Assembly (NCBI RefSeq): GCF_024223415.1
Contig: NZ_CP100500.1
Strand: one strand, 5' to 3'
From: Escherichia coli
GTDB lineage: Bacteria; Pseudomonadota; Gammaproteobacteria; Enterobacterales; Enterobacteriaceae
DNA length: 64,000 nucleotides
The notes beneath the pieces are model-generated. The model was given only the letters and a program-made list of their open reading frames with translations. It searched no databases and had not been told where the DNA came from. The translations under genes and the position numbers were made by a program. This document shows positions 18,703-45,094 of this stretch, piece by piece (the stretch's first letter is position 1; each line of letters begins with the position of its first letter).

Positions 18703-18732
18703 CCAGGAGCGTTTCGGCTCCTGGCCTGTTTT
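18703..18732. terminator. GC-rich hairpin (ccaggagc-loop-gctcctgg) immediately downstream of the UvrD-like gene
   Basis: Perfect 8-bp stem, T-run on the plus strand and A/T-rich tail on the minus strand. Possible bidirectional terminator closing the four-gene operon. Confidence 0.4.
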
Positions 18733-18742: not shown

Positions 18743-20857
18743 TCAGTCAGCCACTAATAGCGGACTAGGGACACCAGATGATGAAACAAACAGCCCTTTT
18801 ACGGCACGGGTTGCAGCCACATGCAGTAACGCGCGCTCATTAAATAATGCATCACGCTGTTCAACGGGATCATCGGATGCTAATGCTTTTATTTCCGGCA
18901 CAACGCCTTCGTTAATCCCCACCAGGAACACATACTGGAACTCAAGCCCTTTAATACGGTGCATCGTTGCAACCCGCACGCCAGGGCGTGCATCGCTGTC
19001 ACCGCTATCATTGCCTAAATTAAATGTCTCAATTCCGGCGTCATTCAGTGCTGATGCGTAGCGGTCACAAGCATGTTTAGTACGCGCAGTAATGCAGATA
19101 TCCTGAGAACGAACCTGATTCGCCAGCAATGCCTGAATTTGCTTGACGAGCGTTGCAGCCTCTTCTTTGAAATCTGCCGCATGCGTAATCATGGGCTTTT
19201 CCCCGTGCAGTAATGACAAATAATCATTACTGGTATCCGCTTCGCCATCGAGGTTATCAACCTTCACACCAGTTAACAGCCCAACAGCAAATTGACGCGT
19301 CTCTTCTGTGGTCCGATAGTTAATCTTCAATTTTTTACTGCGACGACCACGGACGTTAATACCACACTGACCAAGAACGACCTTATTGCGATAAATACGC
19401 TGATGCCCATCCCCGACAATAAACAGATCGTTGGGCGACTCGGGAACCAGGCTGCGAATAAGAGTAAATGCCGGGGCACCGATATCTTGAGCTTCATCGA
19501 CCACAATACTGCTATAAGGTAGTTGGACCTGCTTTTCTTTAAACAGAACAATAGCCTCATGCATGGCATCGCCCATTTCGCGCAGTTTGGCACGCGCCAT
19601 TTGTGCTCTGAATTCTTCAAAGACTGGCCAGATTTTCGCCCGTTGAATACGGGATAACGCTGTACCACGTCCAACCCGGCTGACTTTGAGGTATTCCTCC
19701 CGGGTGTAAACCGCATTTGGCTGGACAACGCGTTGCCACTCTTCAGCATAGAAATTATCAGGTAGCCCCAGTTCGGCAGGTGCCTGCTGCAAGGCATAGT
19801 TCCAGCATTTGCGTCGCCCTTCATCGCTGTCGTATACCACGCGGAAATCATAACCGTGGCGTTTTAGTTGGTCGCTCATCCAGGCATCAATGTTAACGAC
19901 GTCAATACGCGCCATCTCTTCTCGCGTACACAACCGCTGGAGATTAGCGCGAATATCTGCCGCCAGGTTACGCGTAAAGGTCGTGAAAAGTACCTTCTTA
20001 CCGGGTTTATCTGCCAGACGCTGAGATAACCACCGCGCACGGTGCATCGCAACAACCGTTTTCCCTGTACCTGCACCGCCCAGTACTCGTACCGGACCAT
20101 TAGCGGGCGACTCCACCAGTTTTCGCTGGCTCGGATGCAGAAATACACGCCATTTTTCTAAAGGCGCATTAAGCATCTGCAACAGCTCCTGTTCATTTTC
20201 AACGACATGGAAGCGACGTTTACTTCGTTCAATCGCCTCCATAAAGTCGTTGGTATCAACAGGCTCATCACGATGATCGTTAAACTCTTCCAGCACTTCC
20301 TGGTAATCCAGCCCTTCTGCCAGCCAGTGCAGAGGTTCCCAGGCTTCTGCTGGCATTATGCTTTCAAGTTGGTTAAGCCCGGCTTCATCGGTAAGCGCCA
20401 TCACCTGATCAATAAAGACAGGCGGCACGCCCAGGGCCAGAATCTGTTCCGCGCTGTAAGCCGCGAAGAGTTTCGGTTTATCAACCACCGCTTCCGGTGC
20501 CGGTTTGATATAGCTAATATCAATAACCTGAATCGCGCCGGTAACTGGGTGAATCGAACAATCATGCCGCCGCGCCCAGTCGTATGCTTCGTCGTGTTTA
20601 TCCACCCACATCAGCATATACAGGGCACCCTGTTCAGGTTTCAGAACAATGCCGCGATAAGTTTGATCGATTCGCACCGAATGGACATTTTTACTGCGCG
20701 CATCGTGGATCTTTTCATAGTTAAGTCCATTACTGGTCGGGTCCTGACGGAATTTGGAGATGAATTCCTGCACCTTTTTTTGCTGTGCTTTTGGGATCCG
20801 CGCGAATGCGCCCAGAAAACCATCAGAAAGTGCCACCTTGGGCGTTTGCACCGTCAT
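18743..20857 (-). CDS. UvrD/PcrA-like superfamily-1 helicase with ~250-aa N-terminal extension (last gene of four-gene defence operon)
   Basis: Walker A VLGGAGTGKTVVAMHR, Walker B IVVDEAQDI, C-terminal motif VATMHRIKGLEFQYVFLVG. The start ATG overlaps the stop of the upstream 2113-aa gene (ATGA). Confidence 0.75.
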   Translation of the reverse strand: MTVQTPKVALSDGFLGAFARIPKAQQKKVQEFISKFRQDPTSNGLNYEKIHDARSKNVHSVRIDQTYRGIVLKPEQGALYMLMWVDKHDEAYDWARRHDCSIHPVTGAIQVIDISYIKPAPEAVVDKPKLFAAYSAEQILALGVPPVFIDQVMALTDEAGLNQLESIMPAEAWEPLHWLAEGLDYQEVLEEFNDHRDEPVDTNDFMEAIERSKRRFHVVENEQELLQMLNAPLEKWRVFLHPSQRKLVESPANGPVRVLGGAGTGKTVVAMHRARWLSQRLADKPGKKVLFTTFTRNLAADIRANLQRLCTREEMARIDVVNIDAWMSDQLKRHGYDFRVVYDSDEGRRKCWNYALQQAPAELGLPDNFYAEEWQRVVQPNAVYTREEYLKVSRVGRGTALSRIQRAKIWPVFEEFRAQMARAKLREMGDAMHEAIVLFKEKQVQLPYSSIVVDEAQDIGAPAFTLIRSLVPESPNDLFIVGDGHQRIYRNKVVLGQCGINVRGRRSKKLKINYRTTEETRQFAVGLLTGVKVDNLDGEADTSNDYLSLLHGEKPMITHAADFKEEAATLVKQIQALLANQVRSQDICITARTKHACDRYASALNDAGIETFNLGNDSGDSDARPGVRVATMHRIKGLEFQYVFLVGINEGVVPEIKALASDDPVEQRDALFNERALLHVAATRAVKGLFVSSSGVPSPLLVAD

Positions 20858-23800
20858 TTGTCACCTCCGGACAGATGTTGCAATGTATTTTCGTCAATTG
20901 GCCCGAATGCAACGTGCCAACCTCTGGTTGTGAATAATGGAATAAATTCTTGATTATCAATAATCAATGCCCATTTTTGTGATGGCCAGGCGAGATCGGC
21001 TTCCGCAATAATTTCACCTTCATCATTTTGCAATTCGTAGCCGAGAGTCGGCGCAGAGAGAGAATGAGACTGAAGCAACGCGATCTCTTCAGCGCTTAAT
21101 AAGCCAAACTCAATAATCTCAGCCCAACTCTCATCAGTCTCTGGTACTGCCTCTGGCGTTGCCGAAACTTTAGTGTCAACGCTTTCCTGCGGTAAATGCA
21201 CGGCTTTACGGCTGGTAAAGGTCATATCCGGCAGGAACTGTAACAGGTTTACCAGTCGCCAGAAGCCATTGAGTCCCGCTTCATAACCGTCATCCTGCGT
21301 ATAGCGATCGTCAAAACAGATATGCAAACGCAGCCAGCTGCGCATTTGTGCGACGCTGGTCGTCGGTTTAATGGCTTGTTGTGGCAACACCGAAGCCAGC
21401 TCAATAAATTGCTGCGATGAGTTACAGCTATCGAGTAAACCACCAAAGACAAACGGTTCGTCTGGCAAAAGCTCTGCTAGCCGCCAGGCTGGCGCGTTTT
21501 CCTGCATTTCATAGGCATACTTTTGTTTCGTTCCCGCGTCCTGTGACTTCTTCACATCCAACCACACCCAGGCATGTGCAGCAGCCATTCTCTGCCATAA
21601 CTGCGTTCTTCCGCCCGGATCGGCGAGATAATCCAGCAGCAGTGCAAAACTGTTGCGTTCCCGGAACGACGCTTCAAGGGCCGCAAAGTTGGTATCGTGA
21701 AACAGGTTATAAAACTTAGGCTGTTTCATATCCGGGTTATGCCCAAGTCCCAGGACATCCTGAACATGTTTAAGCCCAGGCTCTTTGAGATCGGCCCACG
21801 TGACTGTCCACACCCAGAAATTACCGCTATCCCGAATCGCCTGGCGTTTTTGCACATCCTCTGCGACGCTATTTTTGTGGAACGCAAAGCCATCAAGGAA
21901 AATAGCCACCGGTTTAATGACATCAGACTGCATAAGCGGATATAGCACGTAATCCGGGCGACAAGGGATCCCCACCGCCTCTTTAGCGCCTAAATCCACC
22001 TGAGCTTTAAGATGCCAGCTCATCATCGGTTCGCTGCGGGTGTTAATAATCCACCCAGCGCCCTGATGCGCGTAACTGCGACTGACAATCAGGTTTTTAT
22101 TTTCTTGCAGGCAGCTAATAAACCGTTTTTCCAGCTCACTGCCCATCATGGCTTCGAGGGAAATGTTTTTGATGGAATCAATTACCCGTATCGAATCTCT
22201 TGCCTGCAAAATTTTCGCCAGCAAGAGACGCGCCTGATCGCGGGAGACATACTTCATGCGCCCACGGTCACGGTAAGCGTAAACGCAACGATAACAACCA
22301 TCTTTATGCGTATCATTGTTGCAACTGCATTCCACTATTGCCTGATAGGCCAGTTCAAGTAATTTCAGCAAATTGTCGGGAGTGCGCATCAGCTCTTTAA
22401 GAGAACCAGTTCCCCCCGGGACGGTATCGTAAATCACCAGATACTGCCTCCAGGATTCGCCTTCATTTTCCGGCTCGCGGTACACAACGCCTTTCAGGTG
22501 ATCGACATTCCCCTTGAAGTAATGTTTAAGGCCGAGCTGGATCGCCGCCCCAAGAGAAGCCTCCACGACACGGTCATTACTGTAACTGCTTACCGGGAGC
22601 AGAATACGCAACGCTTCTGACTCCAGCTGGCGATAGAGATAGAGATAATCTTCGAACTTCGCCTTTTCCGGTTCCGTGCGATATTTGCAGCTCAAATCAT
22701 GACGTGGTTCATGATCGCGAGGACGCTGCACCATGCCGCACCCGAGGCAAACTTTAAACCCGGTTCGCTTCTTCGCTTCTCCGGCAATCATCAACTCATT
22801 GGCATCATCCGCCATTTTGCCGAAGTTGATATCCCGCAGGGTGACTTTGCTTAAAAATTCAAAACCAAACGGAACTTCGCCTTCCTCAATCGCGTATGCC
22901 GCCGATACATCTTCTTTTTCGAAACTAACCAATAGCTGACGCTGGAAGAAAGCAGGTTCACGGCTGTCGCTATCGTCGCTGATCTGGCTATCACGTGCGC
23001 TGGCGCGGGCATAAACCTGGCGAAGTTTCAGCAGCGTGGTTTTTTGTCCGGCATCGGCCCACCCCGGTGTGCCACATTTCGGGCAATATTTATGCTGGTC
23101 GCCCGTCTGGTCGATATTTTCGCTGTAGTTACAGTGGCTACAGATACGCCAGTTCTCCGGCTCAGAGACCTTCAGGTCTATCTGCTCAATTTCAACTTTA
23201 TGCCCACCGGCATAGAAATTATTCAGCGGAGCCAGCTCAGCCAGCGCCGTTGATGCCGGGCGTTCATATTCGAAAGTGGTGTTTTGATATTCACGCGCTT
23301 CCCCGCCTTCTTTACGCCGCCAGAGCACAGAACGTAACGTAATACCGGCTTCCGGGAAGGCGTAGTTAGGCAGCAGACCTTCATCCGTGAGGAAATTCAG
23401 CGTTTGCTTATTGTTGATTTGATTGACCAGCGCCATCAGCGCCTGCCGTTCTGAAGTCAGTTCGCGCATATCGCTGTCAAAGTTTTGATCGCGCGGCGCG
23501 TTCTCCAGTTTATCGATGCTGCGCTTGAGTTTATCGATGCGTGAGCGCAAAGATTTGCGATCTTCCACCAGCAGTTTTAACGCTTCTTCGATACGCTGCA
23601 CCAGCGAACGTTGCCCTGGCGCGCCCTGAAGATAAGACAACAGCTGTTGGCGAGTTTCTGCGGCAAGATCGGGGAAGATCGCCGTAAATTGTGCAGCAAT
23701 CTCCGCATGATGCTGTTCGATATATCGCAGTAAGTTATACGGAAAACCCGATTTACGCCCGAACTCCAGCTCATCCAGCATCTGTTTGACGTTTTTACAG

Positions 23801-26800
23801 ATAGCGGATTCTGGTACACCGGTTTTCACCCAGTTATCCATACAAAAAGCTGCCAGCTGGCGTTCGAGAATAGCCGTTGCATTGAGGAAGACGCCAGGAG
23901 CCTGCACCTGGCCCTGCATCATCTCCAGCGGTTCTTCAAAGAAAAACTGATCGTGCGGGTTCCCTTCTGCCACGGTAATGTTTAACGCGTTACCATCTTT
24001 ACGACCGGCGCGACCAATACGCTGCAAGTAGTTGGCCTGAGCAGGTGGGACAGAACAGAGTAAAACGGTGGAAAGATCGCCAACGTCAATACCCATCTCC
24101 AGCGTCGGTGTTGCCGACAACAGGTTGATATTCCACGGTTGGTTGCCGCGGTAGAACGATTTTTCGGTGGCTTCGCGATCTTCACGGCTAAGCAGCCCCG
24201 TGTGTTCTGCGCCCTGTACGCGCGCGATGTCCATGTTCTCCCAACGCCAGGTCGCCGTATTGTCGACTTCCTGGTAACGACCTTCACAACGTAAAGAGAG
24301 ACAAGGCGCATTACGCCACTGCCAGCCTTGATCGGCCGGAGCCCGGACAACCTCACGGCAACATGAACAATTAAGCTGAACGACGTCACGGCTCACCACC
24401 AGCGCCGAAGGCACCAGTCCCCAGGCTTCACGCCCTTTGGTGTCAAAATCTTTTACTACTCCGGCTATTTTCAACGCCGTAAACAGGCGTCGTAACACTG
24501 TTTCCGCAACGCTACTGATAAACAGATTATTGCCGTTACTCAGCGTGCGATTGATCCAATGCTGATACCAACTGGGGTTAGACTTCGCGCCAATCAGGCG
24601 ATGGAAACCATTAATTTTTTCAAACGACGCATAAGCCGGTTTACGCGTTTTCGGACCGATAGAAGGCATATAGCGCGAGGTACGCTCTTTTTGCGTCATC
24701 ATAAAGGTCGTGCCATCACGGCGATAACTTTCGAACGCCGGATGCATAACGGCCCCGGCCTGGCGTTGATACCAGATAACCCCCAGCGCCAGGTGCGCGA
24801 CCTGCTCGACGCTCACACCGGACATCTCATCACCCAGCTCTTCACAAAGCTGTTGATGCAGGGCGGTAATTGCCGGATTAAAGCGTTCTTTATCCACTCC
24901 GGCAACGGCATAACCGGTGGCTTCCAGCGTACGTCCGATACGCGCGCGCAGGGTGAATTCGCTGTACACCTCCCAGTCGAGGCGCAGGGAAACCAGCTCC
25001 GGCAGATCGGAGTTCTCCGCCAGTTTGCCTTCATTTTTCAGCATCTGATAATCATTCAGCCACTGCATATTTGGTGCGATGAAGTTCGCTGCAAAATGAG
25101 CATCGTCCGGTGAACGTTCACGCGTTTGTTGGCAAACACGCGCCGCGAACGCATCCAGCGGTAATGTCTCTTTTTCGCCAAGAACACTGGCGATTTGCCC
25201 ACGAATCATCAGCGGCCAGGTACGGGCAGTAAAGAAGCTGGCACGATGCGCGGCGTCTTGTACCGAGTCAGAAAACGTAATCAGCTTTTTATGTTCGTTG
25301 AACTGGCTGCCATAAAGCTGGTGAATCATCACCGCCGACAAACTGGCAGCCCGTGACCCCAGGATCGAAATCCCCTGTTTGCTGTTGCAGTACGGGCATT
25401 CATTAGCAAACTCCAGCTCGTCCTTACGCTCTTTGAGCATATCCGGGATCAGTACCTGCAACAGTTCCGTATGACCGCAATGTCCACACTGGACGCTGGA
25501 CTGTCGGTTCAGTTTCAGACAGGTAGGACACAGTTTCTGGTGTGCGCCACTGACCGCTTTTTCGTTGTTATCCGGGAAAGCAAGGACGATGGAGCGTCCT
25601 TTTTCAAAGAACTGGCGATAAATGCCGTCGAGGTCTGTTTCCAGCTGAACGCTTTGCCCATGACGCAGGCTGGCCCAGCCAGTTGCGTGGCAGTCACGGC
25701 AGTGGATAACCGGCAAATAGTGTTCGCGATCTTCCACCGCCACATCATCGGCAAACACCAGTCGGGGCGTTTTCGCCACGCTGGCGACCAGACGACGCAT
25801 CTCACGAAGCCACAACTGGGAGCGCAGTTGCACAAACGGCAGCACCGGACGCGCTTTCTTCGCCTGGAGACGTTTTTGCCGATCGTGTTCCGTTTCCGGT
25901 ACTTCGAGACGTGCCTGTGCGATCAGCGCCAGAATGCTTTGCAGCACGCGTCGGGCATGGTCGGCGCTTTCTGCCAGCATGACCTGGAGATTTTCCAGAC
26001 ACTCTCGTTCAGAGAGGATCCCGCCTTGCAGATCATGGAGTAAGACATGCATCACGCTGTGGCGGCGTAACAGTGACCCCAGCGCAATACGCTTTTCACG
26101 CCCGTCGTCGCTCTCCAGATCGTCCGGGAGTTGCAAGTCGCTGTCGGGGAACCACAAAGGGATTTGCCCGTTAAGATACGCTACCGGGGTAGCGTAACTC
26201 TGCGGGTCCAGGGCCGAAGCGACCTCCGGCCCCGGATACTGACTGTACGCAATGGCGTAATCCTGCAAGTACTCCGCTGCCGTGTAGCGATCTTCGCGAA
26301 TAACGGCGTCATCGGTAAACGGCTGGTCAAAGATTGTTTTTGCGTAATCGAGCAGTTGCCCCAGCTCGTCGCCGACGGTAGCTGATGTCCCGACGCAGGC
26401 GAATCGTTGGTTATCTACACCTATGTGATGCTTCAGACGTCGCACCAGACAGGCCAGATCCGACCCTTGCGCGCCATCAAACGTATGCAATTCATCCACG
26501 ACCAGGTAACGCAATGAACCGGGCTGGTTGTAACGCCAGAGCGGCTGATCGCCAGGGCGCATCAGCAGGTAGTCGAGCATTTTGTAGTTGGTCAACAGGA
26601 TGTCCGGCGGGCTTTCGCGCAGCGTGTGCTTGCAGGTAATGACCTTTTCTGCCGACATTTTTTTGCTGGGTTCGATTTCGCTGTCGCCGACAAACAGGCC
26701 GACGGTCACCTTGCCATGCAGTTGTGTATCGCTGGCGATGGTTTTGGCGAAACGGCTGGCCTGATCGGTTGCCAGGGCGTTCATCGGGTAGATGATAATC

Positions 26801-27195
26801 GCTTTAACCCCGGCTTGTGACGCGCCCGCGCAGTGGTTGAGCAGCGGGAACATAAAGCATTCTGTTTTACCGGAGCCGGTACCGGTAGCAACCAGCGTCG
26901 GCTGTGGCGCGTCGCTTCCCAGACGCTGAAATGCCCGGGCCTGATGCGCGTGCGGCGGGAACGGCAGCGTCAGATTAGGGAAGAAATTCAGCGGTAAGTC
27001 ACTTTTACGAAACGGCAACTGGGCGGAAAGGTATGGTCCTTTCAGCAGCGTTTCGGGCTGGGCCAGAAATTGCTCCAGCATTGAGACATTATCGTTATTC
27101 TCACCGTTAAACAGCGGACTGTTTAGCGGGAACGCCGCCCGTAAAAAGGCGGCAACGCTGTCGGCGACCTGCCGACTGACAACGGATGGCAGCAT
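20854..27195 (-). CDS. 2113-aa DEAD/DEAH-box helicase with Cys-rich DUF1998-like region (DrmA+DrmB-like or DruE-like giant helicase)
   Basis: Motif I ATGTGSGKTECF, motif II VVDELHTFDG, motif VI QRIGRAGRKDG about 800 residues later, then CxxC clusters (CSHCNYS…CPKCG, CLGCG, CSCNND…CYRCV). C-terminal PDYVLYP…IFLDGFAFH patch might be a nuclease-like fold. Confidence 0.7.
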   Translation of the reverse strand: MLPSVVSRQVADSVAAFLRAAFPLNSPLFNGENNDNVSMLEQFLAQPETLLKGPYLSAQLPFRKSDLPLNFFPNLTLPFPPHAHQARAFQRLGSDAPQPTLVATGTGSGKTECFMFPLLNHCAGASQAGVKAIIIYPMNALATDQASRFAKTIASDTQLHGKVTVGLFVGDSEIEPSKKMSAEKVITCKHTLRESPPDILLTNYKMLDYLLMRPGDQPLWRYNQPGSLRYLVVDELHTFDGAQGSDLACLVRRLKHHIGVDNQRFACVGTSATVGDELGQLLDYAKTIFDQPFTDDAVIREDRYTAAEYLQDYAIAYSQYPGPEVASALDPQSYATPVAYLNGQIPLWFPDSDLQLPDDLESDDGREKRIALGSLLRRHSVMHVLLHDLQGGILSERECLENLQVMLAESADHARRVLQSILALIAQARLEVPETEHDRQKRLQAKKARPVLPFVQLRSQLWLREMRRLVASVAKTPRLVFADDVAVEDREHYLPVIHCRDCHATGWASLRHGQSVQLETDLDGIYRQFFEKGRSIVLAFPDNNEKAVSGAHQKLCPTCLKLNRQSSVQCGHCGHTELLQVLIPDMLKERKDELEFANECPYCNSKQGISILGSRAASLSAVMIHQLYGSQFNEHKKLITFSDSVQDAAHRASFFTARTWPLMIRGQIASVLGEKETLPLDAFAARVCQQTRERSPDDAHFAANFIAPNMQWLNDYQMLKNEGKLAENSDLPELVSLRLDWEVYSEFTLRARIGRTLEATGYAVAGVDKERFNPAITALHQQLCEELGDEMSGVSVEQVAHLALGVIWYQRQAGAVMHPAFESYRRDGTTFMMTQKERTSRYMPSIGPKTRKPAYASFEKINGFHRLIGAKSNPSWYQHWINRTLSNGNNLFISSVAETVLRRLFTALKIAGVVKDFDTKGREAWGLVPSALVVSRDVVQLNCSCCREVVRAPADQGWQWRNAPCLSLRCEGRYQEVDNTATWRWENMDIARVQGAEHTGLLSREDREATEKSFYRGNQPWNINLLSATPTLEMGIDVGDLSTVLLCSVPPAQANYLQRIGRAGRKDGNALNITVAEGNPHDQFFFEEPLEMMQGQVQAPGVFLNATAILERQLAAFCMDNWVKTGVPESAICKNVKQMLDELEFGRKSGFPYNLLRYIEQHHAEIAAQFTAIFPDLAAETRQQLLSYLQGAPGQRSLVQRIEEALKLLVEDRKSLRSRIDKLKRSIDKLENAPRDQNFDSDMRELTSERQALMALVNQINNKQTLNFLTDEGLLPNYAFPEAGITLRSVLWRRKEGGEAREYQNTTFEYERPASTALAELAPLNNFYAGGHKVEIEQIDLKVSEPENWRICSHCNYSENIDQTGDQHKYCPKCGTPGWADAGQKTTLLKLRQVYARASARDSQISDDSDSREPAFFQRQLLVSFEKEDVSAAYAIEEGEVPFGFEFLSKVTLRDINFGKMADDANELMIAGEAKKRTGFKVCLGCGMVQRPRDHEPRHDLSCKYRTEPEKAKFEDYLYLYRQLESEALRILLPVSSYSNDRVVEASLGAAIQLGLKHYFKGNVDHLKGVVYREPENEGESWRQYLVIYDTVPGGTGSLKELMRTPDNLLKLLELAYQAIVECSCNNDTHKDGCYRCVYAYRDRGRMKYVSRDQARLLLAKILQARDSIRVIDSIKNISLEAMMGSELEKRFISCLQENKNLIVSRSYAHQGAGWIINTRSEPMMSWHLKAQVDLGAKEAVGIPCRPDYVLYPLMQSDVIKPVAIFLDGFAFHKNSVAEDVQKRQAIRDSGNFWVWTVTWADLKEPGLKHVQDVLGLGHNPDMKQPKFYNLFHDTNFAALEASFRERNSFALLLDYLADPGGRTQLWQRMAAAHAWVWLDVKKSQDAGTKQKYAYEMQENAPAWRLAELLPDEPFVFGGLLDSCNSSQQFIELASVLPQQAIKPTTSVAQMRSWLRLHICFDDRYTQDDGYEAGLNGFWRLVNLLQFLPDMTFTSRKAVHLPQESVDTKVSATPEAVPETDESWAEIIEFGLLSAEEIALLQSHSLSAPTLGYELQNDEGEIIAEADLAWPSQKWALIIDNQEFIPLFTTRGWHVAFGPIDENTLQHLSGGDK

Positions 27196-30100
27196 CAGGC
27201 GTTCTCCTTATCTTGTGCAAAGAACGCCCAGGCCACTTTGTAGTCGTCTTCGCGATCTGGCTTGATAAACGGAGCCTGCCAGGTGACGGTGCGGCGCTCG
27301 CCTTCGTCGCTGCGGGTATAGTCATCAAAGGTGACGCTGACGGTACCGGTTTTCAGATGTTTGACATCATCCCAGCCGATGGCTTGATCGGTGCAGTCAC
27401 CGCCGGTCCACTCCGGGCTGTCGACGTTAAAGACAAAGCTGTTTTTCAGATCAGCTTTACGGGCGGTACGCGGCAGACCGACGCCCACCAGCCCTTTGCT
27501 TGGGGTAAAGATGATGCGGCCGTTTTGGTCGTACCAGGTGTCCGCTTCGTACTGGCGCATCACCGGGAACTGTACACGGTAAATGGTAAGCAGCTCTTCG
27601 AGAGTTAACCCCAGCGCCTGTGCCACCAGCACGTCGATTTCCACCAGCGCCTGACGACGACTGTAGTCGGAGCGTAAGGCGCAGTTACGCTGCCACTCTG
27701 GGGTCAGATTGGTGAAGAAATCTTGTGGCAGCAGCGGGAGATCGCGGCTCCAACGCTGGGTGTTGAAGTCTGGGGTGTAGCAGGATTGCCAGAGATCGGC
27801 GTAATCTTTCGTTAACACATTCAAAGCTAATGCTCTTGAGTTTGCACTCATTAGCTCAACATAAGGGAAGCCACGCAATGTTGATTCATAAACATCCGCC
27901 CGTCCTGTTGTTTTCAAATAAAAATCAGCCACTATTGAATGGCAAAATGCAGAGAAACTTAGCAGGTTTATTGGCTCTCTAAATGTTGTTGAGAGTACAG
28001 GGTGTATATGAGCAACGTGCTTTGGAACTATGCTGGATATCATCGAGCGTTCTGATGATGCCCCAAACATTCTCCGATTAACAAAACGATAATAATCCGT
28101 CACCTTCCTCGGCTCGTCTTCATCCTGCTCTTTCCACGAAACCCGTGGGGTGCGCTTTGCATACTCCTGTGCATCACATGCCGGAATGTAGTTAGTTCGC
28201 GGCAGGTAATCGTCGGGCAGGGTTAATAAATCAAGGCAATCATAATGGCTATTTGCCTCACAGAGAGCTCTTGGTGTCTTATTGAAAGGATTACCCACGA
28301 AGAAATGGGGACCAGACAATACCCATTGAGAAGCATCTTTTGGATACATTGTTTTACGCTCGATAGTGCCATCAATTTGCTGATTTGTTTCATGCCACAT
28401 TTCCAGAGAAAAATACTGGCCTTGCAAATCGCCTAATCGCTTCGGCTGATTGGCAAATTTTTCCAATACCGCGACAAGTTGCTCTGCGTGCAAAGCGGGA
28501 AGACGAGCCTGTAATGCTGGCGTGTCGGGTTCATCATACAAACGAGCAAATAAAGCTAGCTGCTCTTTCGTGACACGAATAAGCCTGGATTTATGACCTT
28601 TAGTATTCCATCGGCTATAGTAAACATCTTTTATATAACCTTCTTCCTTAATGCCACCAACCAATCCATCACCTGAATGCTCAAAACTCTCATCAAGAGT
28701 TGAAGGAATAAAAAGATTATTAATATTAATAAACTCCACGTCGTTCGATTTGGTCATAGAGTAAACATGTGTCCCAAATTTCATTCGACCGTGATCATTT
28801 GTTCCAACAAATAGAGAAAACTCATTTTGATATTGGCAATGTAGACGTAACCTTGGATAGATCTCTTCTCTGAAGAGCCCTCCCTTAGGATCGTCATATA
28901 CCCCCTCTGGGTGAACAAATCCTGCCACGCCTTTCTCTGCCCCCAGACGCCAGGCCTGAGGCAGGAAGCATTTATACAAGTTGGTCTGCACCCCGCGCAG
29001 TACCGGGTAGTTTTGCTGCGCATTGAGGAAGTTTTGCATCCCTTCACAGCCTTCATACTCGCTGCGCCAGGCCGCTTCCAGCGCCGGGATCTGGTTAAAG
29101 GTATCAATACGCAACGTTGCCAGCTTCGATGCACTCAGCTTACGCAGCACAAATTCCGGCTCGTAATCACCCAGCACGCCCGCTTCCTGCCATTCCACTT
29201 TCAGCCACGGCGGGTTTCCGAGCATCAGGTCAAAACCGCCGCGCTCGGCAAACAGGTCGCAGAACTCCAGATCCCAGTGGAAGAAACGGTGCTGCTTTCT
29301 CAGGGCATCGACAATCGCCAGACGCGGCAAATGGCGGAACAGCACATCGGTTTTCAGACGACCAGCAACGGAAAACAGCGAAGACTCTTCTCGCAGCAGG
29401 CCTTCTTCGGCAAACAGATCGCCAGTAGTGCGCTCCGCAACTTCAGTGACTTTTTCCGTAATCACAATCCCGTCGAGCAGGGTTTCAATCTCAAACAACC
29501 AGGTACCGCGATCCGGTAACTCATCGGCTTTGTCGATCGGCCAGAACCACAGCGCGCACCAGTAGTCCATCACCCAACGCAGCTTCTGGTAGGCGCTGTT
29601 ATCTTCAAGACGACCGCTAAAGGTTTCATCTTTACTGCTCAGCGAAGAACGCGTCTGCTCGCTGTTTTCTGCCGGCCACACCGGGTAGCTGTCGGCGGTT
29701 TTCAGACGTTCTGCTTTAAGTTGCTGGCGATAGGTGTTCCACAGTGCTTCCACCTTTTCGCTGATACGCTGCACATCAGCAATCTCATGCCCGGCAAAGC
29801 TTTTAATAAACTCTTTGCGCCAGCTGTCCAGCGCTTTGAAGTCATCCGGATAACGCTGCTTAACAGTTTTATCGCTGTAGTTAGCCATACCGCCGTCGGG
29901 CAGCAGGAAGTGGAAAATCTGCGTCTCTTCACGCGGCGTGTTCATCGCCAGTTCGACCGGCTCGCTGTTAAGCCAGCTAGGATCTTTGGCTTTTTTGTAG
30001 GTCAGTTCGCTCTTGTTGAACACCTGACGGCGCGCGCCCACCAGCGAGTTACCGCAGTGCAGCTGGTAACCAAACCACGGTACAAAGGCATCGCCACTGA

Positions 30101-32126
30101 TGGCGTTCAGCCACAGCGACACTTCCGCCAGCTCCACCGCCACCGGGTTTAAGTCCACGCCGAAAACATTGTTATCGGCAATGTACATTTTCACCCGCTG
30201 TAACTCCTGGGTGTAACGATCCTGCGGAATACGGCGACCTTCCGCCTGCTGCTTGTGGAACAGATACGCTTCCGCCAGCTGGTTGATGGCTTCGTTAAGG
30301 AACGCCGCGCTGCCCATCGCCGGTTCGCACACAGTGAGGTTTAAGATGGCGTCGGCTTTGGCGTGCGGATCGCTAATGGGATCAATCTGCTCCTTAAACA
30401 GTTCTTTCAGGGCATATTTAACCAGTGAGCGGGTCAGCACTTCCGGGGTGTAATAAGAGGCAGATTTCTCACGGTCGCGCCCGGCCATACGGTAGATAAA
30501 GCTGCCTTTGCGGTGAATGCGCAGACTGCCGTCTTTCTCGTAGACCTTCTCGTCTTCGTGGTATTTGCCAATCTCATCCTTACTGACGAAGTAACCTGTC
30601 TCCAGCTCGTTAAACTCTTCCCCGGCTTTCTTCACCTCGTAGAGATCTTCGCTGGCGAAGAATCCACGATAGGAGAGCAGCGCCTCATACACCGCACCCA
30701 ACTGGTTGATACCCAACTGGCGATAAGAAATACGTCCGCGGCGGTTAAAGCGCCCTTTGGCCGGGCGGCTTAACGACATCGCCTGGATAATCTGTTGCAG
30801 GGTTTCGTTACGGAATACCACGCGGTTAAGAATGCGCGTGTTGTTGGCATCAAACAGATGACTTTCCAGACGCGGGACGCTGAACTGATGACTATGGATG
30901 GTGATCCGGTCGCCGCTCTCCAGGTCACTCTGCATTTTCACGCCGCCGTTGTAGCCTTCGCGCACCAGTTTAAACAGCATATTCAGGCTGTCGTGGAAGT
31001 AGCGCCCGTTGCGATCTTCTTCGCTGGTCAGCGGGATCATCTCCAGATCGCGCAACGTTTCCAGACTGTAACCTTGCAGATAGGTTTTGGCTGTCATTGG
31101 CGCATAACCCAGCTCCGGGCGCGCTTCAATGTAGAACAGGAACAGCAGGCGGTACATGTAACGCAGACATTCGCGGCTCAGTTCATCCGGGTCCACCGCA
31201 CGGTTACCGGTATAGTTTGCCAGGCCACGGTCGATCAGATAATGCATCGCTTCGTTGCCCAGCAACTCAATGCTTTCGCGCAGGGCATATTTCAGATCTT
31301 CCGAAACACCAAACGCATGTTTGTGCGAATTGTCATCCAGCGAGTCAAGATAAGGTGCCCCACTGCCCGGCAGCAGAGAATCTTTATGTAACAACACCGC
31401 AGTCGCTTTCAGCGTATCCGTTTCACGACGGCTTAAAATCTCTTCAAAATCAAAACGTAGCAGACGGTTTTGCGCCCACTTAGTACGGTCCAGCAGCAAT
31501 AGCTGACGGTTACCGAGCAGCAGCACAAAACGCGGCGGTTCATTTTGGGTGAAGACCGCCGTAGAGAGCAGATCCTGCCAGCTGCGATATTCACCGTTGG
31601 CTTTTTTGCGCAGGCTGTCGCGCTTATGTTTGTCGGTATCCGCCGGGAATTGCGCGGTCAGTAAGGAGAGCGCCAGCGGATCCAGCGTTCCTTCTTCCTG
31701 ATCGTGTGCTTCAACAATCCACAGCCACGGGCTACCGTCAGTGCTGTTGTAACGCGCCAGTACCGGCAGCGGTGTATCGTCATCCAGCATTTGGATCTGT
31801 GGCGTAATTTCGTAGCCCAGCGCCTTTAACAATGGCTGCCAGCGATTACGTTGATCGGCCAGACGCTGCGGGATCTGACGCTGTTTTTCGTGCTCGGCAA
31901 GTTTGCGGAAAAACTCAGTCGCCAGACTGTTAAACTGGTTCCACGGAGCGCGGTATCCCGGCTCCACGTCTTTGCCCTGTTCACGAGCGGCACGCTCCGC
32001 TTCACGCGCTGCATTTTCCTTGGCTATCCAGGGTTCCAGCACATCGCGGATATCACTGGTGAAAACCTCACCCAAATAGTGGTTAGAGTAAAATTCGTTT
32101 TCGTTATTAATACCGACCAGCGCCAT
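27195..32126 (-). CDS. 1643-aa N6-adenine DNA methyltransferase (gamma-class; DrmMI/PglX-like)
   Basis: SAM-binding motif I …CEPAMGSAAFL… and catalytic motif IV …LGNPPWLKVEW… (NPPW). Its stop overlaps the start of the 2113-aa gene. Confidence 0.8.
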   Translation of the reverse strand: MALVGINNENEFYSNHYLGEVFTSDIRDVLEPWIAKENAAREAERAAREQGKDVEPGYRAPWNQFNSLATEFFRKLAEHEKQRQIPQRLADQRNRWQPLLKALGYEITPQIQMLDDDTPLPVLARYNSTDGSPWLWIVEAHDQEEGTLDPLALSLLTAQFPADTDKHKRDSLRKKANGEYRSWQDLLSTAVFTQNEPPRFVLLLGNRQLLLLDRTKWAQNRLLRFDFEEILSRRETDTLKATAVLLHKDSLLPGSGAPYLDSLDDNSHKHAFGVSEDLKYALRESIELLGNEAMHYLIDRGLANYTGNRAVDPDELSRECLRYMYRLLFLFYIEARPELGYAPMTAKTYLQGYSLETLRDLEMIPLTSEEDRNGRYFHDSLNMLFKLVREGYNGGVKMQSDLESGDRITIHSHQFSVPRLESHLFDANNTRILNRVVFRNETLQQIIQAMSLSRPAKGRFNRRGRISYRQLGINQLGAVYEALLSYRGFFASEDLYEVKKAGEEFNELETGYFVSKDEIGKYHEDEKVYEKDGSLRIHRKGSFIYRMAGRDREKSASYYTPEVLTRSLVKYALKELFKEQIDPISDPHAKADAILNLTVCEPAMGSAAFLNEAINQLAEAYLFHKQQAEGRRIPQDRYTQELQRVKMYIADNNVFGVDLNPVAVELAEVSLWLNAISGDAFVPWFGYQLHCGNSLVGARRQVFNKSELTYKKAKDPSWLNSEPVELAMNTPREETQIFHFLLPDGGMANYSDKTVKQRYPDDFKALDSWRKEFIKSFAGHEIADVQRISEKVEALWNTYRQQLKAERLKTADSYPVWPAENSEQTRSSLSSKDETFSGRLEDNSAYQKLRWVMDYWCALWFWPIDKADELPDRGTWLFEIETLLDGIVITEKVTEVAERTTGDLFAEEGLLREESSLFSVAGRLKTDVLFRHLPRLAIVDALRKQHRFFHWDLEFCDLFAERGGFDLMLGNPPWLKVEWQEAGVLGDYEPEFVLRKLSASKLATLRIDTFNQIPALEAAWRSEYEGCEGMQNFLNAQQNYPVLRGVQTNLYKCFLPQAWRLGAEKGVAGFVHPEGVYDDPKGGLFREEIYPRLRLHCQYQNEFSLFVGTNDHGRMKFGTHVYSMTKSNDVEFININNLFIPSTLDESFEHSGDGLVGGIKEEGYIKDVYYSRWNTKGHKSRLIRVTKEQLALFARLYDEPDTPALQARLPALHAEQLVAVLEKFANQPKRLGDLQGQYFSLEMWHETNQQIDGTIERKTMYPKDASQWVLSGPHFFVGNPFNKTPRALCEANSHYDCLDLLTLPDDYLPRTNYIPACDAQEYAKRTPRVSWKEQDEDEPRKVTDYYRFVNRRMFGASSERSMISSIVPKHVAHIHPVLSTTFREPINLLSFSAFCHSIVADFYLKTTGRADVYESTLRGFPYVELMSANSRALALNVLTKDYADLWQSCYTPDFNTQRWSRDLPLLPQDFFTNLTPEWQRNCALRSDYSRRQALVEIDVLVAQALGLTLEELLTIYRVQFPVMRQYEADTWYDQNGRIIFTPSKGLVGVGLPRTARKADLKNSFVFNVDSPEWTGGDCTDQAIGWDDVKHLKTGTVSVTFDDYTRSDEGERRTVTWQAPFIKPDREDDYKVAWAFFAQDKENA

Positions 32127-32128
32127 GA

Positions 32129-34987: not shown

Positions 34988-35058
34988 CGGTTTTTCTGTC
35001 TATTTGGGGCAGTGGCGGTAACGTCATCCTGAAAAATGTGGCGCGGCACACTGCGATA

Positions 35059-35210: not shown

Positions 35211-38200
35211 TTATCCAGCGATAATATAACTCCTAAGGTCATTACCCGGGGCAACAGCTCGCGCTCGCGTGTTTGCCAGCCGTTCAACTTGCTGCGGTAC
35301 TCGCAGGGCAAAATCAAAGAAGGTATCTTCAATACAGCGCCAGTAGCTAAGCCCCATGTCGAGCAGGACATAATGCTGACTGCCATCGCTGAAGGTGACT
35401 GTCAGTTCTCGTCCATGCTCCGTACTCTGGTTATCCCCCGTTAACCAGCTAATTGCTCCCGGCCACGCAGGCCCCAGATATCCTTCTTCAAGTAAAGTGG
35501 TCACAACCTGCTGACGATCTTCCTCATTAAGCCACGCGTTATAGAGAGCGTCGTGTTGGCGAGAGTTGTAATCCAATTTTTTGACGCAAACAGTGAGGCT
35601 GGCGCGTTCCGCCATTCCCTGTTCAACCAGCTCGGTTAAGATTTCACCTAACAAACGCGCCGTGAATGGGCTATTAAGATAACGATCGCTGTACTCAACA
35701 TGCGTTATCTCTTTGTGGCGGGTAAATGCCTGCTTCCAGCCAGCGTGCTGTTGCGTGACTAACGACCAGAAACGCGAACCAAAACCTTCCAGCGGCCCGT
35801 CCAGTTGTTCACAGAGATTGATGCGCACCGCCCCGGTGGGTAAGGCGGGCAGTAAATCTTCTGCACTTAAGGTCTGACCCGAGAAGTTTTTTCCGGACGT
35901 TCCTTTAAGTGTCACTACTGGTGAAGACGCACTTTGTCCCCATAATTCACCAGGGGCAACGGTAGCGCTGTCGTCTGCGGCCCACTGTTGGCTTTGCCCT
36001 TCGCGAGTCACCTGCGCAAGCCAGCGCCCCTTTCCTTGCATGAGTTGCGCAGTGGCAATGGATTTCACTTGTAAGCGTCCTCCCGGCATCGCCGCCAACG
36101 CGGAAAGCTGATGTCTGGAGCTATCAGTTAAGTTTTCCAGCGGCGTGGCCACCAGCAACTCAACATTCCCACCGGAGGAGGCAAACTGGAGCAACTCTTT
36201 AAATAATGGCCATTGGGCAAAGTCCCACTGTTCCTGCGGCCCCGCAAGAACCAGCGAGCAGGAGTCATAAATCTCGCTGTTCAGGCATTGCGCAATACGT
36301 AAACTCAGAGGGTTAGTTTCAACCCGGCTACCATCGCCGAAGTACTGATATTCTGGCGCGAGGTTAAGTCGCTGCAACCGTACATTGGTAAGCAGGGTTA
36401 ATGCATGGTGACGATCTAATCTGTTGACATAATGCTGACTGTCGTAGCTGAGCAAGCAGTGGTGACAAAATTTATCGCAACTGCAATCGAGCAATTTTCT
36501 GGCGTAATTAAAGACATCAGCCCAATGGTCGATCAATTGCACTGCATAACCTGCACCACCCGCATTATTGTCGTATATGAAGATGGAATATCCGGTATAG
36601 CCATTGATATCGCGCGCTTGCTGCGTCGTCACGCCCAGCTCAGTATTTTCGATACCCAATTTATGCGCTAACCCTTCACGCAAAGCGACCGCAAGGGAAC
36701 GCGCGGCAACCTCATCACGGATCAACAGGCCATTATCATCATTGAGTTGCAGCTCAACCATATCTGTACGACTGCTATATCCCAACCACAGATCTTTATG
36801 CACATGACCGTGGCACAATTTATTGCTCCCCTGACGATCGTTACTGCCCCCTCGCAACAGGTAATGCGTATTTTCCCGCTCTGGGTTCTTTAGATTTTCA
36901 GGGGTACGCTGGGGTTGAGTTTGAGATTCTGCCCGACCACATGAGAGGCAAATTGCGTAGCCGTGCCCAAATTCCCCTTCACTGAAGTGGAACAATTCCC
37001 CACTATGGCTAAAACGGTAACGTCCTAGCCCAGCATCGGGTAAAGAAACCCACACCGAAGACGGTACAAGAACACGTGGATCTTTCCAAGGAAGTTGTGC
37101 AGGCATGGATACATCATTATGTGCCTGATAACGAATATCTGTCGCAAAACCAACAGGCTGTAAATAACGCTTCACATCAAGTTGCTGTATATCCGCTTTG
37201 CAGTGACTACATTCGACAGGACGGGTAGTACTGGTTGCCCCCGCACCACATTTACGGCAATGCCAGAACCACGGAATGTGATGATCGCCTGACAGCTCCT
37301 GCCCGCTGGCAAGTACCTTGCCAAGCATAATGCCCGAGGAACGATATACTTTTCCGCCCAATACCACATCTGCACCAGGCGCATACTCGCGTAATGCTGT
37401 AGGTAGATCACGGCTGGGCAATTTTTCAATACGACGAGAAAAGCTTTCTCCCCCTTCATTAGGGTCAGCCTGAGTAGCTTTTATTGCACGACGTTTTTCC
37501 AGCTCATCTGCCGTCAGATAATTGAAATTGACGACGCCAACCGGGAAACCATGCCCCGGCAGGAACGCTTCACTAATGAGTTTAGAAAACAGATATGCAC
37601 CGCGATAATCACGAAGCTGATAAGCGATGGCTTTACCTGCTGGCGTTTCTTCCCACGCGCTGTTATCCGCCTTCAACGCTTCGATATTTTCCAACAGTAT
37701 CGCAAGTTGGCTTCTCCAGCGGATATCAACCTGCTGCATCATTGCTTGTGTGCGGGTCAAGAGCTGGGTTGCCGTCAATGACTTCAGGACGGTTCCCTGA
37801 GTAAGGCGTTTAAGTTTATCCGCCAGCTCATCGGCCTGGTGATTTAACCAATGAAGAAAACGAAGACACTGGCTCTCATCACCTTCAAAGAACCATTTGC
37901 AACTCAGTTTTGTCGCATCAGGTACTTCAGCTCGTAAAAACAGACCTAAAACCAGGGCATTAACATGTCGTTGAACAATACTACTGCTCCCAAAACGAAC
38001 CCGTGGCGCACTGGCAGTAGTGTTGAACGCCCAGAGGGGGTCTTTGAATACCTCCATTCCATGCGCCGTGTTTTTACATAACGTAATGGCAGCAGATGCA
38101 CTCTCTCCACGACGCCCCGCGCGACCTGCACGCTGCAAATAATTTGCCGGCGCTGGAGGAACGTTGTTCATTGCCACCAAACTCATACCACCAATATCCA

Positions 38201-38693: not shown

Positions 38694-38755
38694 TAAGTGG
38701 TTAACTAACGATTTCCAGTGAGCCTGCTCAGGTTGTATTGCCGGAAAGACTGCGA

Positions 38756-44883: not shown

Positions 44884-45094
44884 CCTGCCTTCCTTTGATA
44901 CAATTCGTAACAGGTTACTATCATCATAAAAAAGCTCAACCCGATGAACTCGCTAAAAATGAGACAAATCATTTATATCTCGAAAAAACTTGTTACAATC
45001 ATGAGCGCTACACCGAACTTAACCATATAAATTATGTGTGTTTTGTTTATTTTTTAAACGATTACAACTATCCATTATTTACACAGGTATCAAA

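Follow-up and report, generated by a model that had tools for sequence, protein, structure and literature searches.

The armD gene that closes an ARMADA type II anti-phage operon in Escherichia coli encodes a RelE/YoeB-fold domain joined to an SF1A helicase core without subdomain 2B

The gene at positions 18743–20857 (minus strand) of the window, by which we mean the whole 64,000-nt stretch of Escherichia coli DNA analyzed here, is armD, which stands fourth and last in an anti-phage operon of ARMADA type II. The gene, the system, and the domain composition are already known from work of September 2025 in E. coli, with genetic validation, and as a discovery armD here adds little; ARMADA type II (armABCD) was named and tested in two preprints of that month (10.1101/2025.09.15.676423; 10.1101/2025.09.22.677730). 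We consider it highly probable that the gene is jointly explained by its identity as armD of ARMADA type II, by a three-part anatomy, and by a proposed mechanism in which its product acts with ArmABC. What is understood least about the system lies in armD, whose product combines a catalytic-looking, invariant RelE/YoeB-fold site with a 2B-less SF1A motor, although ARMADA reportedly does not arrest the cell. Databases still call the gene no more than 'UvrD-helicase domain-containing protein', and in PADLOC v2.0.0 the neighboring genes are assigned to models for type IIG, DISARM, or Druantia, which is why scans keep re-finding the locus as unexplained.

All four genes lie on the minus strand in the order armA-armB-armC-armD, with spacings of +2, −1, and −4 nt. 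armA (32129–34987) encodes a 952-residue SNF2/BrxHII/DrmD-like helicase (PADLOC DrmD, 1.4e-99; 10.1101/2025.09.15.676423) and is intact in the window, its length being equal to that of an intact plasmid copy. armB (27195–32126) encodes a 1643-residue PglX/DrmMI-like N6-adenine DNA methyltransferase (10.1101/2025.09.15.676423), which is matched by the PADLOC models REase_MTase_IIG (5e-289) and DrmMI (5.6e-57) and named 'class I SAM-dependent DNA methyltransferase' in RefSeq, and the gene overlaps the armC start by 1 nt. armC (20854–27195) encodes a 2113-residue YprA-like DEAD/DEAH helicase with DUF1998 and C-terminal nuclease-like domains (PADLOC, NCBIfam; 10.1101/2025.09.15.676423), and its PADLOC matches, to the DruE1, DruE2, DruE3, and DrmA models, are all partial. 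The order published for ARMADA type II is a BrxHII-like SNF2 helicase, a PglX-like methyltransferase, a YprA-like helicase, and a UvrD-like helicase (10.1101/2025.09.15.676423), and both gene order and gene sizes here match the published cassette. In the ORF listing and PADLOC results armD is co-directional with armC and directly downstream of it, and its product has a UvrD-family core in which both Walker motifs, A and B, are present, as well as an N-terminal RelE-like domain.

ArmD here is 99.6% identical to the O157:H7 ortholog, and K266 and D454 bear the very numbers of the two residues that were mutated in published ArmD. The published proteins of NCTC 12900, ATCC 8739, and EDL933 (Bell et al., Li et al.) share its position, length, and RelE-like plus UvrD-family architecture; we found no difference of substance, and the present sequence is simply another armD allele. 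By PADLOC, the cassette lacks the separate DrmB and PLD-type DrmC of the canonical DISARM class 1 set, and its giant helicase gives only partial DruE/DrmA matches, short of the Druantia set. ARMADA has been placed in a class distinct from both DISARM and Druantia (10.1101/2025.09.15.676423). The initial annotation, made from the sequence, had assigned the gene to a co-expressed SNF2–methyltransferase–giant-helicase system and had held that such a helicase is not a component of canonical DISARM or Druantia; both claims are borne out, the first by conserved coupling and published armD deletions and the second by the identity of the cassette as ARMADA type II.

The armD coding sequence, established from the ORF listing and by direct sequence reading, encodes 704 residues from an ATG start to a TGA stop that is followed by an in-frame TAA; the RefSeq CDS WP_000218182.1, annotated in a 100%-identical copy, is the same. 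Across the armC/armD junction the minus strand reads GGAGGTGACAAATGACGGTG. The armC TGA occupies 20856–20854 and the armD ATG occupies 20857–20855, so that ATGA (20854–20857) is common to both, as had been claimed initially for the start of this gene and the stop of the 2113-residue gene. A Shine–Dalgarno-like GGAGGTG (20862–20868, minus strand), a putative initiation signal within the 3' end of armC, places GGAGG 6 nt upstream of the armD ATG. For the O157:H7 ortholog, an earlier annotation (P0125) placed the start at codon 8, a GTG; we favor the ATG because of the Shine–Dalgarno-like sequence and because the stop/start overlap is conserved in other species. A G+C-rich hairpin found by pattern scan (18703–18724), 19 nt beyond the armD stop, may mark the end of the operon transcript, and its role for a minus-strand operon is uncertain because it is followed by a T-run solely in the plus-strand direction. 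Two ORFs overlapping armD, a nested one of 174 aa (19327–19851, minus strand) and one of 248 aa on the plus strand (20207–20953), were rejected as genes and taken to be non-coding shadows of the long armD frame.

Residues 241–693 of ArmD (18779–20137, minus strand) are a complete SF1A core of the UvrD/PcrA/Rep type, with subdomains 1A, 1B, and 2A and without subdomain 2B. Pfam assigned UvrD-helicase to residues 241–490 (E 4.8e-23) and UvrD_C to residues 509–615 and 620–693. All SF1 helicase motifs (Q, I, Ia, and II–VI) are present and are invariant in 47 homologs; they include the Walker A sequence GGAGTGKT (motif I, residues 260–267 with K266; 20057–20080), which is invariant in homologs, and the Walker B sequence DEAQD (motif II, residues 454–458; 19484–19498), in which D454, E455, Q457, and D458 are invariant. 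Sequence matches of the core in the PDB were UvrD1, PcrA, UvrD, and Rep, and a Foldseek search with the full-length model returned DrUvrD, PcrA, EcUvrD, and Rep at E values of 1e-23 to 1e-19, with a TM of about 0.5 across the whole query for the UvrD/PcrA/Rep matches. Together with Pfam and NCBIfam, these matches confirm the original description of the product as a UvrD-like SF1 helicase. The NCBIfam matches to the PcrA, Rep, and UvrD models were partial and fell below the equivalog cut-offs (99.7 versus 911.2 bits for PcrA, 91.8 versus 951 for Rep, 82–90 versus 965–1144 for UvrD, and 70 versus 543 for helicase IV). ArmD has no counterpart of UvrD_C model positions 102–280 or of PcrA residues about 398–557, and just ~20 residues join the helix at 594–606 to the strand at 627–631, where 2B would be. 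Rep without 2B is an activated monomeric helicase; ArmD, which likewise has no 2B, may therefore be constitutively competent.

The region ahead of this core had been described as ~250 residues without a recognizable motif. Its length is closer to 240 residues, and sequence searches were indeed empty, but its structure places residues 7–113 (20519–20839, minus strand) in the RelE/YoeB fold, followed by a linker and helical region that is conserved across the ArmD family (residues 114–240; 20138–20518, minus strand). Thus, the domain search of residues 1–250 that had been proposed supported the interpretation by way of structure. For residues 1–240 Pfam gave nothing better than E 0.1, phmmer of the N-terminal region against the PDB gave just a chance rubredoxin match (E 2), and hmmsearch with a 108-sequence profile against the PDB matched the start of the helicase and nothing in the N-terminal domain. 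The domain has the β-α-α arrangement, antiparallel sheet, and C-terminal helix of the RelE fold, and its best structural matches are the RNases YoeB, YafQ, RelE, and Cami1, ahead of ParE. Within the ArmD family E48, R62, R68, and H88 are invariant, D64 and D89 are nearly invariant, and Y92 is present in 88/108 sequences (81%); the invariance of the first four spans homologs that are just 42–53% identical. Neither of two hhalign alignments of the 108-sequence profile, one with a single YoeB sequence and one with a single RelE sequence, reached significance (E 0.26 and 0.76, respectively), and they serve for alignment register only; the YoeB alignment sets E48, R62, and R68 opposite YoeB E46, R59, and R65. 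We take the catalytic residues of YoeB to be E46, R65, H83, and Y84.

Within the scope of annotated genes and ORFs of at least 100 aa, no cognate antitoxin was found either at the armC/armD junction or within the ~670 nt past armD, at the end of which the next annotated feature is a transposase pseudogene. Besides having no antitoxin partner, ArmD differs from the RelE, YoeB, and YafQ toxins and from Cami1 (CARF-RelE, type III CRISPR) in having two extra strands (residues 98–113) and a fused helical region after the RelE fold, and its similarity to these proteins is undetectable by HMMER. RelE-family toxins normally arrest growth. In contrast, ARMADA protection is reported to be non-abortive, with neither cell death nor metabolic shutdown (10.1101/2025.09.15.676423), which fits either a nuclease that is restrained or acts locally or a role without catalysis.

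The genetic evidence for a role in defense comes from published work on near-identical systems. Deletion of any one of armA, armB, armC, or armD abolished protection against HK022; the K266A substitution in the Walker A motif of ArmD abolished defense, whereas D454N in the Walker B motif caused partial loss, and the published ArmD mutants are confined to these ATPase motifs (10.1101/2025.09.15.676423). EDL933 lacking armD lysed on infection with Bas18, less severely than strains lacking armA, armB, or armC (10.1101/2025.09.22.677730). Deletion of the gene had been suggested as a check, and in these two independent studies it abolished or reduced defense; the requirement is known from the 99%-identical systems of NCTC 12900 and EDL933 rather than from the present strain.

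In the mechanism that we propose, host DNA would be marked by ArmB, and unmarked invading DNA would be recognized and translocated on by ArmA and ArmC. ArmD, which would be made in step with ArmC, probably works in complex with it and would act as an ATP-driven motor, with a predicted 3'-5' polarity on ssDNA, that needs no 2B-mediated activation. It might load at nicks or ends cut by the Vsr-type nuclease of ArmC and then unwind phage DNA so that it can be destroyed. The N-terminal domain, which to judge from aligned residues appears to keep the YoeB-type catalytic positions E48, R68, and H88 together with R62 and Y92, would most likely act as a local RNase, cutting for instance nascent transcripts of the phage or the RNA strand of hybrids that the motor encounters; global shutdown of host translation is less likely.

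GajB of Gabija had been cited at the outset as an SF1 UvrD-like helicase from another defense system, and correctly so: like ArmD, it is an SF1A UvrD-family ATPase serving as a component of an anti-phage system. Of the PADLOC models, GajB matches ArmD best (E 2.5e-36), and the HHpred match of ArmD reported in a preprint was also to GajB (8IUD_A, E 6.1e-32; 10.1101/2025.09.15.676423). However, GajB has a 2B subdomain (PMC10781630) and no RelE-like N-terminus, and its partner is the OLD-family nuclease GajA, whereas ArmD is without 2B; no GajA-like gene (OLD-family ATPase-Toprim) occurs among the annotated neighbors of armD, and those scanned by PADLOC match ARMADA- or Druantia-type models. GajB chains were absent from the PDB sequence matches of ArmD at E up to 1e-3 and from its top 50 Foldseek matches, which comprised UvrD, PcrA, Rep, AddA, AdnB, HelD, and RecB. 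We therefore rejected 'GajB-like' as a more specific description than 'UvrD-like', as it means merely a UvrD-family helicase in a defense context. Compared to UvrD, PcrA, and Rep, ArmD lacks 2B, carries an extra N-terminal region of 240 residues, scores at about a tenth of the NCBIfam equivalog cut-offs, and is encoded by an accessory, mobile gene rather than a core gene.

We also surveyed 80 ArmD loci from other species, covering 10-kb flanks and a single scan of capped size for ArmA and ArmB. ArmC lay immediately upstream of ArmD in 63 of these loci, which answers in favor of the interpretation the question of co-occurrence that the initial annotation had raised. Among the 65 ArmC/ArmD junctions measured, 33 had a stop/start overlap (exactly 4 nt in 22) and 22 more had a gap of 0–30 nt, for a total of 55; thus, a start codon overlapping the armC stop is an arrangement conserved across phyla. 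The four-gene order is kept on cyanobacterial and alphaproteobacterial plasmids at 39–46% identity. ARMADA II has been described as having a strict four-gene order (10.1101/2025.09.15.676423), but ArmB was absent from the region of at least 2.5 kb upstream of ArmC in 18 of the 41 loci that could be assessed. One natural two-gene locus is from Pseudomonadales. A Zorya II operon precedes ArmC in two of the loci without ArmB, giving a zorABE-armCD order in Enterovibrio and Aliidiomarina, and an SNF2-type helicase in three; the others had unrelated defense genes, with no further recurrent alternative partner upstream of ArmC. The ArmB-less loci are interspersed with four-gene loci in a neighbor-joining tree of ArmD, and we rejected the idea that they form a separate clade or subtype. 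These results suggest that ArmC-ArmD, rather than the four-gene set, is the conserved unit, in which case a different protein pair merits biochemistry and defense without the methyltransferase becomes a question. A bolder proposal, which we regard as possible but rather unlikely, is that ArmC-ArmD forms an autonomous, methylation-independent core with interchangeable front ends and that ArmD contains an active YoeB-like nuclease licensed by the 2B-less motor. The front ends would then be ArmA-ArmB, Zorya II zorABE, and others, with ArmD also found after TmtA in place of ArmC, and such a nuclease would be a new use of a RelE-family toxin in direct, non-abortive immunity.

Three alternatives to this account of ArmD differ widely in probability. 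The one with most in its favor, plausible although on balance doubtful, holds that the RelE-like domain is a pseudo-toxin that lost RNase activity or never had it and serves as a nucleic-acid-binding or docking adaptor, for example to ArmC, leaving ArmD as a motor only. To our knowledge, ParE-type members of the RelE fold are not RNases; yet the RNase members YoeB, YafQ, RelE, and Cami1 outrank ParE as structural matches. Sequence similarity to RelE and YoeB is undetectable by HMMER and not significant by hhalign, no antitoxin-like small gene adjoins armD, and a more distant Pseudomonas paralog has a histidine at the position equivalent to E48, all of which would suit an inactive domain, as would direct, non-abortive defense without the metabolic shutdown expected of free RelE/YoeB toxins (10.1101/2025.09.15.676423). 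However, invariance of E48, R62, R68, and H88 and near-invariance of D64, D89, and Y92 at 42–53% identity is what a catalytic site would be expected to show and counts against a pseudo-toxin, and the non-significant hhalign alignment would bring these residues into register with the catalytic ones of YoeB.

It is very unlikely that ArmD is instead a self-contained toxin-helicase, abortive or toxin-antitoxin-like, that merely adjoins ARMADA and is independent of ArmA, ArmB, and ArmC. Published deletions have largely refuted this idea, as single deletions of armA, armB, armC, and armD abolish the same phenotype (10.1101/2025.09.15.676423), so that ArmD is not protective alone and the others are not protective without it. 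The overlap with the armC stop, conserved across phyla, also argues against independence, as does the finding that the ArmD gene is always last in a co-directional operon beside a large helicase/nuclease gene and never alone with an antitoxin. On the other side, clustering of defense genes in islands can arise without shared function, ArmD homologs occur without ArmC in 7/80 loci (some of them downstream of Tiamat TmtA or of DrmA-DrmB), and paralogs at 31–34% identity are found behind either a restriction enzyme-methyltransferase pair or a BrxL-like gene, indicating that use of the module is not confined to ARMADA. The initial annotation had named a flanking housekeeping helicase as an example of what would refute its view. 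That the gene is such a helicase, for housekeeping or for repair, paralogous to UvrD, Rep, or helicase IV and beside the island by chance, has a negligible probability. Although the core is nearest to UvrD, PcrA, and Rep in fold and sequence, and RefSeq names are just 'UvrD-helicase domain-containing protein' or 'ATP-dependent helicase', every NCBIfam equivalog score is far under its cut-off (for PcrA, 99.7 versus 911). Distribution and genetics already exclude it: armD is present in only 533/5426 complete E. coli genomes, sits here in a leuX-associated island, travels with armABC on IncY and other plasmids, and has phage-specific deletion phenotypes (10.1101/2025.09.15.676423; 10.1101/2025.09.22.677730).

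Upstream of the ARMADA cassette, PADLOC identified a separate Druantia III system (DruH and DruE; 35211–44883), whose druE carries an apparent frameshift in this sequence, at a T-run at position 38829. Synergy between ARMADA and Druantia has been described for strains in the ARMADA preprints (10.1101/2025.09.15.676423; 10.1101/2025.09.22.677730), and the present strain may have lost it, provided that the frameshift is genuine. Compared to NCTC10444, the window is 99.97% identical over its first 53 kb, with two single-base indels, and diverges beyond leuX.

The gene at 18743–20857 (minus strand) encodes a 704-residue protein, with an ATG start and a TGA stop followed by TAA, and directly follows the ORF for the 2113-residue ArmC (20854–27195) on the same strand. 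At the junction, read directly from the minus strand as GGAGGTGACAAATGACGG, the armC TGA and the armD ATG are combined as ATGA, and GGAGG lies 6 nt ahead of this ATG. A Pfam search of the protein matched UvrD-helicase at residues 241–490 and UvrD_C at 509–615 and 620–693, with no match in residues 1–240; the P-loop GGAGTGKT occupies 260–267 and DEAQD 454–458. The ORF list, the sequence and Pfam thus confirm the UvrD-like helicase and its ATGA overlap with the giant-helicase gene, as described in the initial annotation.

Two preprints cover exactly this four-gene cassette (10.1101/2025.09.15.676423; 10.1101/2025.09.22.677730). Bell et al. describe ARMADA type II as a BrxHII-like SNF2 protein (ArmA), a PglX-like methyltransferase (ArmB), a YprA-like helicase (ArmC) and ArmD; K266A in ArmD abolished protection, D454N partly reduced it, protection occurred without cell death or metabolic shutdown, and the ArmD domains were assigned by HHpred in Table S2 (GajB 8IUD_A, 6.1e-32; RelE3 3BPQ_D, 0.0085) (10.1101/2025.09.15.676423). 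Deletion of armA, armB, armC or armD from EHEC EDL933 caused Bas18 sensitivity in each case, with armD the mildest (Li et al., 10.1101/2025.09.22.677730). The window protein carries K266 and D454 at the exact residue numbers of the published mutants, and the O157:H7 ortholog is identical to it at 694/697 positions; thus, the gene is ArmD of ARMADA type II and is already known. The remaining interest lies in its RelE-like domain, its missing 2B subdomain and the hint of ArmC–ArmD as a conserved core.

A search with ArmD residues 1–250 returned 284 relatives, the best 120 of which mostly had 96–100% query coverage and 42–53% identity, a few being named RelE by JGI. An AlphaFold2 model of the N-terminal region, built from an alignment of 108 sequences (pLDDT 90.7, pTM 0.86), contains a beta-alpha-alpha-beta4-alpha unit at residues 7–97, two further strands to 113 and, after a linker, eight helices at 136–236. 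In a Foldseek search of this model against the PDB, 48 of the top 50 matches were RelE-superfamily toxins (RelE, YoeB, YafQ, ParE, HigB) or the RelE-like effector Cami1; the top-ranking RelE and YoeB chains had target-normalised TM scores of 0.7–0.79. The earlier statement that the ~250 N-terminal residues contain no recognisable motif therefore holds for sequence, where Pfam is silent, but not for structure, and the predicted RelE/YoeB fold is a solid assignment. E48, R62, R68 and H88 are invariant among the 108 sequences, D64 and D89 are conserved in ≥90%, and Y92 is present in 88/108; the same pattern appeared when 47 full-length homologs were aligned separately. An hhalign comparison with a YoeB sequence was non-significant (E 0.26) and placed E48, R62 and R68 opposite YoeB E46, R59 and R65; H88 would take the place of YoeB H83, after the last strand. 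Catalytic competence of the domain is plausible, its main rival being a role as a non-catalytic adaptor. On one metagenome contig (L008:3498–12120), ArmD is split in two, a 313-residue N-terminal protein comprising the RelE-like and helical parts and a 393-residue helicase, directly after an ArmC homolog, and on another (L007:10001–10939) a solitary 312-residue N-terminal module lies amid housekeeping genes; these cases may reflect frameshifts or decay, or may hint at a separately existing module.

A full-length model of ArmD (47 homologs; pLDDT 88.2, pTM 0.84) best matched D. radiodurans and E. coli UvrD, PcrA and Rep in the PDB (E 1e-23 to 1e-19), followed by AddA, AdnB, HelD and RecB; GajB was absent both from the top 50 PDB structure matches of this model and from the phmmer matches of ArmD to PDB sequences. 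The 2B subdomain, present in UvrD, Rep, PcrA and GajB (PMC10781630), is missing in ArmD. Pfam UvrD_C positions 102–280 and PcrA residues ~398–557 have no counterpart, and helix 594–606 is joined to strand 627–631 by only ~20 residues, indicating that ArmD lacks 2B. All SF1 motifs are invariant among the 47 homologs. Loss of 2B relieves autoinhibition in Rep, and by analogy ArmD would need no 2B-mediated activation.

Beyond E. coli, plasmids of Pseudanabaena, Microvirga and Haematobacter retain the four-gene order with 39–46% ArmD identity, and the 4-nt ArmC/ArmD overlap is found in 2/3 of them. In a scan that took a single genome for each species, at least 586 genomes carried the N-terminal module, and the best 80 loci were classified, with 10-kb flanks, after tblastn with the window proteins. 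ArmB–ArmC–ArmD was present at 23 loci and ArmC–ArmD with a flank insufficient to judge at 22; at 18 loci, ArmC–ArmD had ≥2.5 kb of visible upstream sequence lacking ArmB, calls that rest on the 10-kb flanks, such that ArmA or ArmB could be elsewhere in those genomes. Seven loci had ArmD without ArmC, and 10 contigs were too short for classification. Among 65 ArmC/ArmD junctions, 33 overlap (22 by 4 nt), 22 have gaps of 0–30 nt, 8 of 31–200 nt, and 2 are longer. ArmC is thus the constant partner of ArmD, which is encoded in translational register with it across phyla. This co-occurrence, together with the published armD deletion and mutants (Bell et al.; Li et al.), upholds the initial reading of the gene as part of the system rather than a flanking helicase.

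The ArmB-less loci are mixed among four-gene loci on the ArmD tree, and the genes upstream of their ArmC are other defence genes. In Enterovibrio sp. ZSDZ42 (L012:1–12121) and Aliidiomarina indica (L023:2–12124), a co-directional zorA–zorB–zorE set (Zorya II) precedes armC–armD, with zorE–armC gaps of 185 and 16 nt, respectively, and no armA or armB between zorE and armC; in E. coli, by contrast, Zorya II and ARMADA are mere neighbours on opposite strands. Other upstream neighbours include HEC-01, PsyrTA, a PDC-M68 (LmuB-like) gene, a DpdE/ZorD-like SNF2 helicase, and HipA-like and Hsp70-like genes, and several are unmatched. No ArmB homolog was found in ≥2.5 kb upstream of armC–armD, within 10-kb flanks, at L017, L018, L021, L030, L036, L049, L058, L060, L065, L069, L072, L077, L082, L084, L085 and L087. 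These arrangements suggest a conserved two-gene ArmC–ArmD core. At loci lacking ArmC, ArmD comes after a Tiamat TmtA gene, itself preceded by zorABE (Vibrio albus), closes a co-directional array that starts with DrmA–DrmB, directly after a NERD-type helicase gene (Vibrio ezurae), or precedes another YprA-like helicase (a Holophagaceae MAG, L016). The preprint main text describes ARMADA II as having "a strict gene order" and leaves ArmB-less and ArmC-less arrangements unmentioned (10.1101/2025.09.15.676423).

Distant ArmD paralogs, with 31–34% identity over residues 10–685, RelE-like part included, occur in other operons. One ends a "BPTD_3080 restriction endonuclease"–methyltransferase–helicase operon with a 1-nt overlap on a Pseudomonas avellanae plasmid (L090:6022–14082), keeping counterparts of R62, R68, H88 and Y92 with His replacing E48; another is flanked by a BrxL-like gene and a 1717-residue RecQ-family helicase on a Thermus oshimai plasmid (L089:12469–21167). 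The RelE–UvrD module thus serves several defence-type operons. A C-terminal module of ~70 residues (P-x-G-[YF]-[DE]...E-[IV]-[IV]-A...W-P-x-x-K...GW) is common to ArmC (~2030–2113; window 20857–21100), the ZorE C-terminus (48300–48565) and Tiamat TmtA-like proteins; outside the window, it lies at L015:9500–9802 and L018:3250–3532. The PADLOC ZorE2 model matches ArmC 2021–2096 (5.9e-9), and among the examined loci, whichever of ArmC or TmtA is encoded immediately upstream of armD carries this module at its end.

ArmD, including its Walker A lysine, is needed for defence (10.1101/2025.09.15.676423). Its architecture is a RelE/YoeB fold followed by a helical region and then a 2B-less SF1A core. 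In the proposed mechanism, ArmB would mark self DNA, ArmA and ArmC would locate unmarked DNA and translocate along it, and the Vsr-type nuclease of ArmC would nick it. ArmD, co-produced with ArmC and its probable binding partner, would load on the resulting single strand and unwind 3'–5'. RNA cutting by its RelE-like domain would be local, not global, and a toxin fold would then be compatible with non-abortive defence.

The 2.4-kb armD region is 100% identical in E. coli NCTC10444 and present at ≥95% identity in 533/5426 complete E. coli genomes; 22 of the copies are plasmid-borne. Its island adjoins fim and nan genes and is bounded by tRNA-Leu(CAA) at 53329–53413. Upstream of armD on the minus strand lie armC (partial DruE and DrmA matches), armB (1643 residues; DrmMI and type IIG models) and armA (952-residue SNF2 helicase; DrmD, 1.4e-99), with cassette spacings of +2, −1 and −4 nt, and then, beyond a 223-nt gap, the Druantia III pair DruE and DruH, also on the minus strand; the Zorya II operon is on the opposite strand. 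On an IncY plasmid, this four-gene set occurs with no Druantia. Tools older than ARMADA mislabel the cassette as DISARM-like, Druantia-like or type IIG: PADLOC v2.0.0 labels ArmA as DrmD, ArmC as partial DruE, and ArmB (27195–32126) best as "Type IIG restriction enzyme-methyltransferase" (5e-289, full length).

On E. coli and Klebsiella plasmids (H87–H103), ArmD is 99.0–99.7% identical to the window protein and ArmB only 86.6–93.4%, consistent with a methyltransferase target-recognition part that diversifies while the helicase stays fixed. The G+C content is 38–39% for druH and the Zorya II genes (41524–48568) and 49–55% for the ARMADA genes (20000–35000), a mosaic that suggests different origins of the co-localised systems. 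Between Zorya II and the tRNA, ORFs 48952–49980 (plus; RefSeq "phosphorothioated DNA-binding restriction endonuclease") and 50603–52651 (minus; 682-residue hypothetical protein, 34% G+C) are possibly further defence genes.

The window and NCTC10444 are 99.97% identical as far as leuX. At 38829, in druE, the window has one base fewer in a homopolymer run (T-run, plus strand), splitting this Druantia III helicase gene into ORFs 35211–38693 and 38756–41533 (minus; 925 and 1160 residues), whereas NCTC10444 DruE is a single 2104-residue RefSeq CDS; the split may stem from a sequencing error; otherwise, Druantia III is inactivated beside an intact ARMADA II. Conversely, at 34386 NCTC10444 is one G short and its armA bears a RefSeq frameshift flag, whereas armA in the window is intact at 952 residues, the length of the plasmid copy.
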